In this document: positions 4,433-46,775 of the stretch, one piece after another
Layout: every line of letters begins with the position of its first letter
How positions within the stretch are numbered: the stretch's first letter is position 1
Assembly (NCBI GenBank): GCA_963804165.1
Contig: CAWDPO010000036.1
Coordinates: 32,001 to 96,000 of the forward strand
Length of the DNA: 64,000 nt
Source of the DNA: an uncultured delta proteobacterium
Lineage (GTDB): Bacteria > Desulfobacterota > Binatia > UBA9968
Reading direction: 5' to 3'
Position numbers and translations under genes: made by a program
The notes under the pieces: generated by a model
What the model was told of the DNA's origin: nothing
What the model saw: the letters and a program-made list of their open reading frames with translations, nothing else
Databases searched by the model: none

Positions 4433-4479
4433 GGGCTCGCCAGCGCCTTACTTCTTTTCCCTCGCGAGACCGGCCCTCG

Positions 4480-4563
4480 ATGTCATTCTGAGCCGGAGGC
4501 GAAGAATCTCGGCTTCGTCACTATCTGAAAACACAGGATGCTTCGCGTTGCGCAGCATGACAT
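4480..4563. repeat. REP-like palindrome, GTCATyCTGAG..GAAGrATCT family (uninterrupted copy)
   Basis: ATGTCATTCTGAG..CGAAGAATCT / GATGCTTCG..CGCAGCATGACAT; related copies at 6330, 13640 and 41797. Confidence 0.8.
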
Positions 4564-4644
4564 TCATGTGATCGTCGCGATTCGACATAGTGCGGTTAGA
4601 GGAGCAAATAAGTGCTTGCTGGCCAATTCTTCATTGGCAATGTG

Positions 4645-6111: not shown

Positions 6112-6314
6112 GGTTGGTTGAGTGGAGAGTTCATGCCTCGATAAGGTTAGCACGAACGGAAAAAATCATTCGCAAAATAATCCGTTCACGCCGAGCTTGT
6201 CGAAGCGTTCTTCCTATTTCGATCCGCCTCTGCCTGAGCAGTTGATCGGCTAGTGACTTGCCGTGAATTTCCGCAGTTTGAATCATCAATCGTTTAATTC
6301 TGTGATTTCACTCC

Positions 6315-6404
6315 GAGACTGTGTCGCAATGTCATCCTGAGGCGACAGCCGAAGGATCTCGCTTTCGCAAGTCGCTGCAAAGACGAGATGCTTCGCATTG
6401 CTCA
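6315..6404. repeat. Left part of composite REP/MITE-like repeat, interrupted by the IS1111-type element
   Basis: GAGACTGTGTCGCAA + TGTCATCCTGAG..CGAAGGATCTCG..CGAGATGCTTCGCATTGCTCA; continues at 7721. Confidence 0.85.
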
Positions 6405-6609
6405 TCTATGAAAGCTTTGTCAAGGTGGCTGATATTCACATATCGATATTCCGTCAAAGGTTTTGAACAAACTTACTCATATCGTCCGTAGTCCTGCGCA
6501 CCCGATGTTATCGGACTCATCTATTCGCCGTCTAAAGCGGCAGAGGAAAATGCCACAGGGCTGTCGCAATCAGCATTCGAGCCTTGTTTGGCTCATGAGC
6601 GAAACGCGC
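6405..6609 (-). ncRNA. Putative bridge RNA/seekRNA in the 3' non-coding end of the IS
   Basis: Guide-hairpin-guide layout UUUCGCUCA-[GAGCC..GGCUC]-AUGCUGA matching the target flanks; second hairpin followed by AUAGAUGA matching the donor end; exact RNA ends unknown. Confidence 0.7.
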
Positions 6610-7650
6610 TTAGCCCCGCGTGGACGACATCGGTTCCCGATAGGACTCTCCCTTCTTAAGCATCCAGAAAGCCGCCTCGGCCAAGTGTCGGGCGACCGCC
6701 ACAATCGCTTTGCCATGACCGCGCCTGGCTTTGACGTTTTCATACAGCCGGCTGATATGTCGGTACTGGCAGCGCTCGCGGTTGAGCACCGCGCTGTTGG
6801 CCGCCTCGACGAAGGCCCACTTGAGATACAGGTTCACATCTTTGCGCACCCGCCCGTAGCGGATCTTGCCGCCACTGGAGTTCTCTCGCGGTACCAGTCC
6901 CGCATAGCTCGCCAACTGTTCGGCTCGGCCAAAGCGTTCGATGGTGCCGATCTCAGTCCAAATCACCACCGCCAGCATTTCACCGACCCCCGGCTCACTC
7001 TTCAAGTAGGTCGTCTGGGGGCAGGGAGCAAACGCTGCTTGCATCTTTGCTTCGATGACCTTGAGATTGGCTTGTACATGATCGAGTTCGTCAAGCATCA
7101 ACTTCAGCGCTTCGCCGGTATGAGGGGGCAGTTTAGCCAGCAGTCCTTCGAGGATCTGTCGTCCCTGCTTGCCAAAGGCGTCGCTGATTCCGTCCACCTT
7201 AAAGCCGTACTTACTTATAGTGGCGTGAATCCGATTCTTGAGTTGGGTGCGTTGATTGCTCAACACCATGCGGGTGCGCGGCAACTCCCGAGCGTCGCGC
7301 ACCGCGGACGGGGGAATCCAGACCGTCGGCAGGGTTCCTGCCCTCTGCAAACGGTTCATTCCTTTGGCATCCAACTTATCGCTCTTGTTGACGCTGCCGA
7401 TCATCAGCTTGGCCAAGCGTGCATTGACCAGTTGCGGACTCCCTTTTCCAGCTTCGATCTCATCGACTACCCAGTACCAGTTCCCAACCGTCTCCACCGC
7501 CACGGGAGTTCCGGGATTCCACTTCTTGGTAAAGTTCTCGATGGTTCCACCAACGTGCGCGAGTTTGCACTCATAGAGCTTATCGCCCTTGTCGTTTTCC
7601 ACTCGCGCCCAGCTGTAGTGCTTGTGAACATCCAATGCAATGTATTCCAT
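6610..7650 (-). CDS. IS110-family DEDD recombinase/transposase
   Basis: IALDVHK, VAVE, KSDKLDA (RuvC-like DEDD domain); C-terminal YAGLVPRENSSGG; GGAGG RBS. Confidence 0.95.
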   Translation of the reverse strand: MEYIALDVHKHYSWARVENDKGDKLYECKLAHVGGTIENFTKKWNPGTPVAVETVGNWYWVVDEIEAGKGSPQLVNARLAKLMIGSVNKSDKLDAKGMNRLQRAGTLPTVWIPPSAVRDARELPRTRMVLSNQRTQLKNRIHATISKYGFKVDGISDAFGKQGRQILEGLLAKLPPHTGEALKLMLDELDHVQANLKVIEAKMQAAFAPCPQTTYLKSEPGVGEMLAVVIWTEIGTIERFGRAEQLASYAGLVPRENSSGGKIRYGRVRKDVNLYLKWAFVEAANSAVLNRERCQYRHISRLYENVKARRGHGKAIVAVARHLAEAAFWMLKKGESYREPMSSTRG

Positions 7651-7720
7651 TTGCGATTTCCTCCTTCACCCGCCAGTCTAGTCACTGACGCTGTGGATTC
7701 CATCGCTTTCATATTAATCA

Positions 7721-7757
7721 GCATGACACTAATGGTCGCTCGTTGGTTGCGGCACAG
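7721..7757. repeat. Right part of the interrupted composite repeat
   Basis: GCATGACA completes the CTCAGCATGACA arm; TTGCGGCACAG pairs with CTGTGTCGCAA at 6319-6329. Confidence 0.85.
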
Positions 7758-7830
7758 AAGGGGAGAAGGTCGGAGCAATCCGTACGATCAAATTCTCGCA
7801 CTGTGGCCAACCTTTGCCTTTCCTCGTCAC

Positions 7831-8949
7831 TCAGCTCGCCGCCAAAAGTCGCTCGTGGCCCTTCTTCGAAATCGGCGCGAGTTGGGATGTGACCAACGAC
7901 CAGTTTTCGCCGTTATCCTCGCTGCAGTATACCTCGCCGCCGGTGGTGCCGCCGAAAATGGAGCAGTTACCGTTCGATTCTTCAAGACAGAGCGCGCCGA
8001 ACTCATGTTTCAAACTCTCCGGCAATCCGCCGCCAAGCCGTTGCCAGTTTTTTCCGCCATCTTTGCTGCGGTAGATTTTCCCTTCCGCGCGCGCCGCCAG
8101 ACCGGCCTTTCGCCACGTCGTCGGGTTGTGCTCCGCGGCGGCGACGAACATGAGATCGGGATTTTTCGGATTCCACGTGAACCCGTCGGGATAAACGTCC
8201 GCCGCCCAATCCGGGCTCATCCAGCGTTCCCAACTGCCGCCACCGGTATTGGTGACGTACAGTCCTGCGCCGCCCGTGACATAGATTCTTTGCGGATCGC
8301 GAGGATCGATCAAACAGCGGTGCACATCGTAGAAATGTTCGACGGGACGATTTTTATCCGTGAGCAACCCAACCGTATTCAACTCCGTCCAACTCTCTCC
8401 CTCATCGGTGCTTTTCAAAAACGCACCTTGCTCGATGCAAGCATAGATGGTTTTCGAATCTTTGGGATCGAAGGTGATGAATTTCGTGTGTGCCACGTGC
8501 GGCGCCGCTGGAAAAGTCCATTGGGAAACCGTCGGCACGGAGCGGAGCGACGGGATTTCATTCCAATGCAGCCCCAAGTCTTCACTGACGAATAAGTGGG
8601 CCGGCTGGGTGCCGGCGTACACGCGGACTTTGCCGTTGACGACGTTGGACGCCAAGCTGTAAACGTCGTGGATCGGGATGCCGTTGTCGCGGCGTTCCCA
8701 AGTTTTGCCGCCGTCGGTGCTCGCGTGAACAGAGCCGAAAAATGCGCCGGCGAACATGGTGCCGCTCGTGCGCTCGAAGATGATTGCGCTGATATGCTGG
8801 CCGCGCAGCGCGCGCTGGGCTTCACGCCACCTGCCGTTAGTTTCACGCTCGAAGAGCGCCAACCCGTCTTGGGTTCCGACCCAGAGTTGCTGCGACCGTT
8901 CGCTTGACGAGTAAACGTTTGTGCCGCCATGAGAAAGTCCGACCGCCAT
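7831..8949 (-). CDS. BNR/Asp-box repeat beta-propeller protein
   Basis: STDGGKTW, SEDLGLHW, STDEGESW, SKDGGKNW, SEDNGENW; GGAGGT RBS. Confidence 0.85.
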   Translation of the reverse strand: MAVGLSHGGTNVYSSSERSQQLWVGTQDGLALFERETNGRWREAQRALRGQHISAIIFERTSGTMFAGAFFGSVHASTDGGKTWERRDNGIPIHDVYSLASNVVNGKVRVYAGTQPAHLFVSEDLGLHWNEIPSLRSVPTVSQWTFPAAPHVAHTKFITFDPKDSKTIYACIEQGAFLKSTDEGESWTELNTVGLLTDKNRPVEHFYDVHRCLIDPRDPQRIYVTGGAGLYVTNTGGGSWERWMSPDWAADVYPDGFTWNPKNPDLMFVAAAEHNPTTWRKAGLAARAEGKIYRSKDGGKNWQRLGGGLPESLKHEFGALCLEESNGNCSIFGGTTGGEVYCSEDNGENWSLVTSQLAPISKKGHERLLAAS

Positions 8950-13624: not shown

Positions 13625-13639
13625 CTGAGTTTCGCTCCC

Positions 13640-13743
13640 GTCATCCTGAGCCGGAGGCGAAGGATCTGCTTTTATCGGGCTGAAAGCAGATCCTTCGTCG
13701 CAGAGTTTACGCTGAGCAAAGTCGAAGGGCTCCTCAGGATGAC
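13640..13743. repeat. REP-like palindrome GTCATCCTGAG...CTCAGGATGAC with internal CTGAGC..GTCGAAGGG insert
   Basis: Left arm nearly identical to 4482-4509. Confidence 0.85.
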
Positions 13744-13832
13744 ATGCTTCAGCAATTTATTGTTAGTTTGACGAATAGCTTAGTGAAGTGGCGGTTTAAC
13801 GCCGAAGTCGCCGAACGGTAACTGATACGGTT

Positions 13833-41760: not shown

Positions 41761-41972
41761 CTTATCCTCACCTTCCCCAAAGAGGCTGTGTCGCAATGTC
41801 ATCCTGAGGCCCTTCGATGTTCTCAGGATAAACTCCGCCGAAGGATCTCGTCTTTGTATGGGGGAGGACAATGCAAGATTCGTCGCGGAGTTTACCCTGA
41901 GCCTTGCCGAAGGGCTCAGAATGACATCGAAGCGACTTTCGCGATTGCGACACAGTGTCAGAGGGAGAAGGA
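41761..41972. repeat. Nested composite repeat (purine/pyrimidine hairpin > MITE-like ends > REP palindrome)
   Basis: GAGGCTGTGTCGCAA 41782-96 and TTGCGACACAGTGTC 41945-59 enclose TGTCATCCTGAG...CTCAGAATGACA. Confidence 0.85.
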
Positions 41973-46232: not shown

Positions 46233-46775
46233 GTGCCTAACTATCGGCGTAACCTTGTCGAGGGCGGATCTTTTTTCTTTACTGTTAACCTGGCGGACCG
46301 ACATTCCCGTTTTCTTGTAGAGAGGATCGAACCTCTGCGGCAGGCATTCCGCCATACGCAGAGCCGCCATCCCTTTACGATCGACGCGCTCGTGGTGTTA
46401 CCCGATCATCTGCACGCTATCTGGACTTTGCCACCCGGTGACGCGGATTATGCGACACGATGGAGATTGATTAAAACCGGTTTTTCTAGAGGTGTTGAGC
46501 GCCTCGAAGAACGCTCCGAAAGCCGCCGTCTCAAACGTGAACGTGGGATCTGGCAGCGCAGATACTGGGAACACACGCTTCGAGACGAAGAGGATGTTGG
46601 GCGGCATTGTGATTACATTCATTATAATCCGGTAAAGCATGGACATGTAAAGTCGGCCATCGATTGGCCGTATTCCTCGTTCCAGCGGTTCGTTAGGCGC
46701 GGGTTGTATAGCGCCGATTGGGGCGGTGTGATCGGTCTTGAAGAGACCGCCTTTGGAGAGAGAGCAGGGCGATAA
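46233..46775 (+). CDS. rayT: REP-associated tyrosine transposase (RAYT, HUH/Y1)
   Basis: PNYRR..GGSFFFTV, LPDHLH, WQRRYWEH, YIHYNPVKHG, WPYSS; flanked by inverted REPs. Confidence 0.93.
   Translation: MPNYRRNLVEGGSFFFTVNLADRHSRFLVERIEPLRQAFRHTQSRHPFTIDALVVLPDHLHAIWTLPPGDADYATRWRLIKTGFSRGVERLEERSESRRLKRERGIWQRRYWEHTLRDEEDVGRHCDYIHYNPVKHGHVKSAIDWPYSSFQRFVRRGLYSADWGGVIGLEETAFGERAGR

Follow-up and report, generated by a model that had tools for sequence, protein, structure and literature searches.

The window analyzed here is a 64,000-nucleotide stretch from an uncultured delta proteobacterium of the Binatia (GenBank assembly GCA_963804165.1, contig CAWDPO010000036.1, positions 32,001 to 96,000 of the forward strand), in which an insertion sequence (IS) at positions 6405-7720 interrupts one arm of an abundant palindromic repeat. 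This is very probably an RNA-guided element of the IS1111 group (IS110 family), whose bridge RNA, or seekRNA, picks the repeat arm with its target loop, at a CA/TG core. The anatomy of the element, an empty version of a target site, the census of copies and the covariation of guide words with insertion flanks were read directly from the genomes, and are presented in turn below.

Structure and copies of the insertion sequence

The interrupted repeat and the element within it comprise the following features, in window positions and with the strand where one applies.

6315-6404: interrupted repeat, left part (outer inverted repeat, left arm, central loop, and right arm up to the core TCA at 6402-6404)
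6405-7720, minus strand: IS1111-group insertion sequence, 1316 bp (10 full-length genomic copies; flanks switch exactly at the ends)
6407-6415: subterminal inverted repeat of the IS, right end in transposase sense (read directly: TATGAAAGC / GCTTTCATA)
6418-6423, minus strand: -35 hexamer TTGACA at the IS right end, half of a candidate promoter existing only across a circle junction (ends joined in silico)
6610-7650, minus strand: transposase/recombinase with DEDD (RuvC-like) and Tnp domains, 346 aa, intact (PF01548, PF02371, NF033542, alignment to IS621 8wt6)
7705-7713: subterminal inverted repeat of the IS, left end in transposase sense (read directly)
7711-7716, minus strand: candidate -10 hexamer TAATAT at the IS left end (ends joined in silico)
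7718-7720: second copy of the TCA core (direct reading, copy flanks, empty site)
7721-7760: interrupted repeat, right part (remaining right arm, GCATGACA, spacer, and outer inverted repeat)

The ends of the IS are sharp: a blastn search of 6405-7720 against its own genome (a 7.5-Mb draft of 46 contigs, from a bin 80.9% complete with 5% contamination) gave 10 matches spanning query positions 1-1316, with unrelated flanks. The boundaries can be shifted by at most 3 nt, because TCA is common to target and donor. The copies form three lineages, with four full copies in lineage A (98.9-100% identity to 6405-7720), five in lineage B (82.2-82.5%) and one in lineage C (80%), plus one IS fragment. TCA flanks the IS on both sides in all copies with two visible flanks, and the junction words are identical in 10/10 full copies; insertion is site-specific, with no target duplication past the core. 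An earlier sequence-only reading of the window had reconstructed the uninterrupted repeat by deleting the IS, and we obtained the same result: removal of 6405-7720 rejoins TTGCTCA (6398-6404) with GCATGACA (7721-7728), and the three inverted pairs that it had listed are present with one mismatch each (6330-6341 with the rejoined right arm, 6351-6362 with 6385-6396, and 6319-6329 with 7748-7758).

Read in transposase sense, the element starts with TGATTAA-TATGAAAGC and finishes with GCTTTCATA-GA, that is, with a 9-bp subterminal inverted repeat bearing asymmetric extensions of 7 nt and 2 nt, or of 6 and 3 if the ends are shifted inside the shared TCA. The terminal extensions given for IS1111 elements in PMC11187229 are 7 or 6 nt and 3 nt, and a 9-bp repeat lies at the short end of the range published there. 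The frame at 6610-7650 is the sole long open reading frame of the IS, and leaves non-coding regions of 70 nt upstream (7651-7720) and 205 nt downstream (6405-6609). Its product matches the Pfam families PF01548 (DEDD_Tnp_IS110, E 2.1e-10) and PF02371 (E 3.4e-21), and reaches 232.5 bits, at a cut-off of 140, with the NCBIfam model NF033542 ("IS110 family RNA-guided transposase"). The closest solved structure is the IS621 recombinase (8wt6, E 2e-11); in this alignment S259-G260 falls on the catalytic Ser-Gly and D91/D94 on D102/D105, while D7 and E53 were assigned by eye only. The full 346-aa frame is retained in 3/4 A copies and 5/5 B copies, and is broken in the A copy on contig C20 and in the C copy. 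When the IS ends are joined in silico, TTGACA and TAATAT are brought together across a 17-nt spacer; in the integrated state GCGACC stands at that distance. The arrangement looks like the circle-junction promoter of the family, as described for IS110-family elements in PMC12288879.

A candidate guide RNA whose loops match the insertion flanks

We aligned the downstream non-coding regions of lineages A, B and C with those of D (genome G044) and E (G006), two relatives from the same genus. The alignment shows a conserved scaffold with two short hypervariable blocks, and RNAalifold places both blocks on opposite sides of one internal loop (5 variants). This predicted target loop is closed by a 9-bp outer stem and a 4-bp inner stem and capped by a 6-bp hairpin, with compensatory changes at four stem pairs (alignment columns 12/70, 13/69, 35/48 and 37/46). 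The single-sequence minimum free energy (MFE) fold of the region, which pairs the two guides together and is of ordinary stability, was dropped and the alignment-based structure used instead. The features of the candidate RNA are as follows.

6517-6524, minus strand: candidate donor guide AUAGAUGA, identical to the core together with the terminal bases of the IS right end (covariation with the right-end sequence)
6554-6620, minus strand: target-binding module of the bridge/seekRNA, with outer stem, inner stem, internal loop and apical hairpin (5-variant consensus structure)
6569-6577, minus strand: target loop, 3' side, AAUGCUGAU (match of at least 4 nt in 28/35 insertions against 0/1104 controls)
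6596-6604, minus strand: target loop, 5' side, UUUCGCUCA, predicted to pair with the flank left of the IS on the window plus strand (flank matching)

For A, B, D and E, each loop fits the flanks of its own insertions, as listed here with junctions in transposase sense.

Lineage A: 3' loop AAUGC-UGA, left junction ..ATGC-TGA; 5' loop UUUCGC-UCA, other flank matched over GC-TCA only
Lineage B: 3' loop AAUUC-UGA, left junction ..ATTC-TGA; 5' loop CGCGGC-UCA, other flank matched over 5, 7 or 8 nt including the core (4 copies scored)
D: 3' loop CCCUC-UGA, left junction ..CCTC-TGA; 5' loop GCCUGC-UCA, other flank matched over 9 nt
E: 3' loop UAACC-UGA, left junction ..AACC-TGA; 5' loop CGGCAU-CCA, other flank matched over 9 nt

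The 3' side of the target loop includes AUGC+UGA (6570-6576), whose reverse complement, TCAGCAT, is the word that the sequence-only reading had rightly described as guide-matched. The two junctions of E read TGA on the left and TGG on the right and thus differ at the third base, so what target and donor truly share as a core is just TG (CA on the window plus strand). The third base belongs to the guide; in the window it is by chance identical in target and donor, hence the apparent TCA repeat.

Guides covary with flanks across genomes

A search for relatives of the IS returned 80 public loci, in assemblies of Binatia, Nitrospirota, Chloroflexota, Acidobacteriota and others, the nearest being in Binatia and Nitrospirota. 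A DNA profile of the non-coding region matched 35 of the 80 directly downstream of the gene, and 35/35 share an invariant (U/G/C)AAGCGCG ... UGA(U/A)(U/C)GCGA frame round the variable loops. Loops were extracted by regular expressions from 42/85 sequences. Together with the junctions, and including the copies of the source genome, this gave 45 unique insertions, 35 of them with both junctions visible; the other 10, in which a contig ended or a junction could not be parsed, were left out.

The last 4 nt of the 3' loop contiguously match the left flank in 28/35 insertions, against 0/1104 mismatched loop-flank pairs, and the 35 scored insertions hold 19 distinct 4-nt loop words. For the 5' loop, scored with a one-base register shift allowed and one row corrected by hand, we observed matches of at least 5 nt in 28/35 insertions and in 119/1142 controls. 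The donor word covaries with the right-end sequence in 25/33 loci against 0/712 controls, a result that comprises just three right-end classes and few independent changes. Among 30 other genomes of the genus, any match to the IS was found in 4 and near-full copies in 2, a scarcity that probably reflects the under-assembly of IS elements in these bins. The unpublished genome G005 underlies none of the claims made here.

One Nitrospirota relative, with the loop word AUCC, is located at a GGAT arm. Related IS copies at five Nitrospirota loci (L035, L036, L037, L062 and L101) sit in the same arm motif as in the source genome (GATnCTTCG...CTCA/GnATGACA, with GTCATnCTGA upstream). Judging from these sequences, the repeat motif and the IS clade appear to co-occur well beyond the source genome.

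The host repeat and the occupancy of its arms

The rejoined 132-nt element is predicted to form one long DNA hairpin (-31.7 kcal/mol, z = -4.6), and 0/300 mononucleotide shuffles reached this stability. With an nhmmer profile of the rejoined element, 113 merged repeat loci were detected in the genome. Full copies are ~130-150 bp long, with 16-bp terminal inverted repeats, two arms and, in some, an extra internal module. Each arm is a local stem-loop, in which the variable base of GATnCTTC is complementary to that of TCAGn'ATGA in 139/144 arms; the entry point of the IS is on the 3' strand of the arm stem. The three states of this variable base may simply be three subfamilies. The arms in repeat loci, of the form TCA-NNAT-GAC, are occupied as follows.

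GGAT arms: 70 empty, 0 with full IS copies
GAAT arms: 70 empty, 6 with full IS copies, all B and C (loop AUUC)
GCAT arms: 19 empty, 4 with full IS copies, all A (loop AUGC)

By our own arithmetic, a random pick among the 169 arms would yield this pattern with a probability of (23/169)^4 x (76/169)^6, about 3e-6. The expectation of the sequence-only reading that occupancy tracks TCAGCAT held for the insertions themselves, with A at TCA/GCAT in 4/4 cases and B and C at TCA/GAAT in 6/6, and failed for the 19 GCAT arms that are empty. The mechanism that it proposed is correct in outline, but its statement that only the copy fitting the guide had been hit is too strong; one of these 19 TCA-GCAT-GAC arms is even 97-98% identical to an occupied site. 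The 70 TCA-GGAT-GAC arms hold 0 copies, in line with the tracking.

Lineage B follows its left-side guide as well. With the left guide GCGGC+UCA, its CGGC-TCA-GAAT-GAC sites are visibly occupied in 3 cases, with 1 more inferred from an empty allele, and empty in 4. At other GC-preceded GAAT-GAC arms 1 is occupied and 21 are empty (25 less the 4 CGGC sites), and 0 are occupied among the 45 GAAT-GAC arms without a preceding GC. Lineage A does so less cleanly: it has 3 copies at TTGC-TCA, with 3 such sites empty (one of them the C25 allele described below), and 1 copy at TTCGT-TCA; GC precedes TCA in 16/19 empty TCA-GCAT-GAC arms.

The window itself holds three uninterrupted copies of the repeat.

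4466-4600: uninterrupted copy (right arm ...GCGCAGCATGACA, core TCA changed to GCA)
13639-13745: uninterrupted copy with GGAT arms (right arm CTCAGGATGACA)
41782-41956: uninterrupted long copy with GGAT left arm and GAAT right arm (right arm CTCAGAATGACA)

These are the relatives that the sequence-only reading had contrasted with the interrupted copy. They are real and their right arms differ as it claimed; the left arms had been overlooked, and that of the first copy is a good lineage B target. Indeed this arm (4482-4500; C36:36491, minus strand, C36 being the contig of the window) presents a near-ideal empty lineage B target, ..CCGGC-TCA-GAATGACA, 2 kb from the lineage A copy.

The same reading had called the repeat a REP (repetitive extragenic palindrome). 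Its 113 merged loci agree with the many dispersed copies expected of a REP, and its length of ~130-150 bp disagrees with the short palindrome (about 20-40 bp). A REP linked to a RAYT (REP-associated tyrosine transposase) was likewise rejected: among 18 matches to PF01797 (Y1 transposase) in the incomplete assembly, none lies <2 kb from a repeat locus, the nearest being at 2.1 kb and most at >20 kb. Given this distance and the length, the repeat does not qualify as a REP proper, and is better described as REP-like or MITE-like (miniature inverted-repeat transposable element). The 18 matches themselves, which include 46296-46625 (C36:78296-78625) and lie in many cases in open frames of ~320 aa, are unusually numerous and located away from the repeat.

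Three further observations concern the repeat. Its left arm (6317-6390) has a match to Rfam RF03078 chrB-a through the common word GAGGCGACAGCCGAAGnATC, with 21 bits at a gathering score of 43.9 (E 0.8), and the chrB-a motif may overlap the repeat family. Just beyond the termini, C and T often predominate on one side (..ccttctccc..) and G and A on the other (..ggggagag..), for example at C45:216457, C6:188513 and C10:57759; the repeat seems to sit within another short palindrome, or to favor such sites. A 9-nt word (ATTGCGACA / TGTCGCAAT) is common to the terminal inverted repeat (6319-6329) and to the RNA scaffold by the target guide (6560-6570). We judged this identity a coincidence: its chance is ~0.25 by a rough estimate, and relatives whose targets are unrelated carry the scaffold unchanged.

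Natural empty sites

Contig C25 holds a 97-99% identical version of a region of contig C20 that bears one A and one B copy. Between C25:1624-6923 and C20:83771-89973 we could thus compare two 5-kb segments, one with two IS copies and the other with none. The flanks of the A copy align to C25:..3530 and C25:3531.., abutting, with a single TCA and no other change, which agrees with the earlier claim that nothing beyond the TCA core (strictly, CA/TG) is duplicated. The left flank of the B copy extends to C25:6923 and is followed there by TCA-GAAT. C25 may come from a second strain or be a true duplication; it is a natural empty site either way.

At the locus of the IS in the window, four related genomes (G001, G004, G011 and G018) have the genes that flank it 125-377 bp apart with no IS between them, and a fifth (G014) has an uninterrupted repeat of the same architecture beside the orthologue of the right-hand gene. 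Four public sequencing runs yielded short IS and repeat-arm fragments and no read or contig across either junction or the empty site at the locus, so that they are uninformative on polymorphism or excision.

An arm on C17 (~163,785-163,810, minus strand) reads ..TTCGTTCA-TCA-GCATGACA and equals the target of the lineage A copy on C41, except that it carries the core TCA twice and lacks an IS; in a sister arm on C13 (~21,063) TCA occurs once. The double TCA could be the footprint of a loss that kept both cores, or simple slippage.

Points against RNA guidance and alternative explanations

Several results weigh against selection of the target by the RNA. In 7/35 relatives the 4-nt test failed, some of them possibly through errors in parsing by regular expressions. 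Most matching sites in the source genome are empty (19 GCAT and 70 GAAT arms), so a guide match alone does not predict occupancy. The 5' loop of lineage A (UUUCGC+UCA) fits its targets over GC+TCA alone in 3 copies, or with an internal mismatch (C41), and 8 empty CGC-TCA-GCAT-GAC sites fit this loop better ungapped than the occupied TTGC sites do. On the side of the RNA itself, an exact search gave no evident donor guide for the IS left end in the A-E clade (one was seen by eye, uncounted, in distant relatives, e.g., CCAUCA vs ..CCCATCA); an Rfam scan of 6200-7900 at E up to 1 returned no family matching the non-coding region, its sole matches being the sub-threshold chrB-a on the repeat arm and a chance snoRNA (small nucleolar RNA); and the MFE fold of the entire non-coding region is not unusually stable (z = -1.19).

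These results led us to reject the simple idea that lineage A occupancy tracks the best ungapped left-guide match, given that better-fitting CGC sites are empty. The 5' guide side of this lineage is permissive, bulged, or read otherwise than we aligned it; as a guess, a bulged C in the lineage A RNA would give 7-8 matches to TTGC sites. Insertion thus requires the guide word, yet the word does not determine which matching sites fill.

We weighed three rival explanations. The recombinase might read the hairpin or cruciform shape of the repeat, the match to the non-coding region being incidental. The poor fit of the lineage A left guide to its targets would favor this idea, as would the location of the target within a conserved local stem-loop (GATnCTTC...TCAGn'ATGA, with the complementarity in 139/144 arms noted above). 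We nevertheless consider it very unlikely: D and E insert at other sequences, matching their own loops over 7 and 9 nt; the loop word equals the flank in 28/35 insertions against 0/1104 mismatched pairs; and A and B tell GCAT from GAAT arms of the same shape. Slightly less credible still is that the copies are not independent, an occupied repeat having spread by duplication or by movement of the repeat and so mimicking site specificity. Although the C22 fragment and the lineage C copy on C30 lie in similar contexts, and C20 and C25 are 97-99% identical over several kb, the 9 copies with two visible flanks have unrelated sequence beyond the repeat, and no flank match of at least 150 bp joins two IS loci, save one repeat-sized match of ~160 bp between C3a and C30 with 78-79% identity. 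Moreover, the repeat copies differ in loops and spacers, and the duplicated C25 segment is the empty form.

That the assembler placed an IS consensus into repeats is worth raising for a draft of this completeness and contamination, whose B copy on C20 ends its contig. This artefact is nonetheless extremely improbable, since 9 copies lie inside contigs with unique sequence on either side, the copies differ by point changes and small indels, and the junctions follow the same logic in independent public assemblies from other phyla. Selection of the repeat arm by the RNA remains our preferred explanation.

Discussion

We propose that the element encodes a DEDD/Ser recombinase and, downstream, a bridge (seek) RNA that is non-coding and has two internal loops. 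One of them, the target loop, would pair with both target strands round the CA/TG core, the core being read together with 4 nt on one side and with 2 to 6 nt on the other; the second, the donor loop, would pair with the joined IS ends. The element would exit as a circle joining its ends, and the circle joint would assemble the TTGACA-17 nt-TAATAT promoter suggested by the sequence. The circle could then recombine at the core of any site that matches the target loop, with duplication of the shared core alone. The matching site here is ..GC-TCA-GCAT.. in the 3' stem of one arm of the palindromic repeat, and a sister lineage of the same genome, which differs by one base in the guide word (AUUC vs AUGC), is inserted at the GAAT variant of this repeat. 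Expression and processing of the RNA, the circular intermediate and the recombination chemistry are presumed by analogy with published work on IS621, ISEc11 and ISPpu9.

Siddiquee et al. (2024; PMC11187229) describe IS1111-type elements with subterminal repeats, a long non-coding region downstream of tnp and a seekRNA matching both target strands, and Durrant et al. (2024; PMC11208160) report bridge RNAs in the right end of IS1111 elements. As described in PMC11187229, ISEc11 and the ISKpn60-type and IS5075-type elements resemble the present IS in their ~340-aa DEDD transposase, in subterminal repeats with short asymmetric extensions, in the downstream non-coding region, in two RNA stretches matching opposite target strands, in site-specific insertion without target duplication and in natural retargeting via a change of the loop word. 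Unlike them, the present IS comes from an uncultured soil bacterium, targets a ~150-bp palindromic repeat and is known from sequence alone.

With IS621, as presented by Durrant et al. (2024; PMC11208160) and Hiraizumi et al. (2024; PMC11208158), it shares a target loop, a candidate donor loop and strand-wise reading round a dinucleotide core; the catalytic Ser-Gly and acidic residues align, and both elements would complete a promoter at the circle junction, a feature predicted from the joined ends in our case. The protein resembles that of IS621 weakly (E 2e-11), and does so in the C-terminal domain and a short N-terminal stretch alone. IS621 is described as a member of the IS110 group with its RNA upstream of the gene and a CT core, whereas in the present IS the RNA lies downstream and the core is TG/CA. 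Unlike in IS621, one of the two target guides of the present IS is just 4 nt long, and its left-end donor guide is not evident.

Insertion into repeats also has precedents. Tobes and Pareja reportedly discussed REP-targeting IS110-family elements in 2006. REP sequences are the insertion sites of the IS110-family elements ISPpu9 and ISPpu10 of Pseudomonas putida (PMC12288879), which resemble the present IS in having many copies at one fixed position of an abundant palindromic repeat, extragenic there and apparently intergenic here. In that account ISPpu9 belongs to the IS110 group, lacks subterminal repeats and has a 35-bp REP target; unlike it, the host repeat here spans 130-150 bp, with 16-bp terminal inverted repeats and no RAYT association. 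The view of the repeat as a safe harbour, put forward by the sequence-only reading, is reasonable by analogy, and is an idea already published for repeat-targeting IS110-family elements.

Every main feature thus has a counterpart in the literature cited, namely RNA guidance, natural retargeting, the logic of core and strands, and REP-dwelling IS110-family elements. With a new host organism and another kind of repeat as its target, the present IS adds a neat but unremarkable case to a mechanism described in 2024, and leaves knowledge of that mechanism unchanged. It offers a compact natural illustration, with occupied and empty versions of a site, two active-looking lineages and a one-base guide difference mirrored in the insertions, all in one draft genome. 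It also provides guide rules for an IS clade widespread in soil and sediment (the TG core is read with a 4-nt word on one side and with 2 to 6 nt on the other). The invariant UGAUUGCGACA scaffold makes the guide easily readable from sequence, and the rules aid the annotation of such elements and the prediction of their landing sites.

We consider it possible, though somewhat doubtful, that sister IS lineages split a polymorphic repeat family among themselves via single-base guide changes (AUGC/GCAT, AUUC/GAAT and, in Nitrospirota, AUCC/GGAT), in a pairing that recurs across phyla. If this is true, an RNA-guided IS clade and a repeat family would be bound in a long-lived, allele-for-allele association, and the three-state stem base may be kept diverse partly by the pressure, or the opportunity, that the IS presents.

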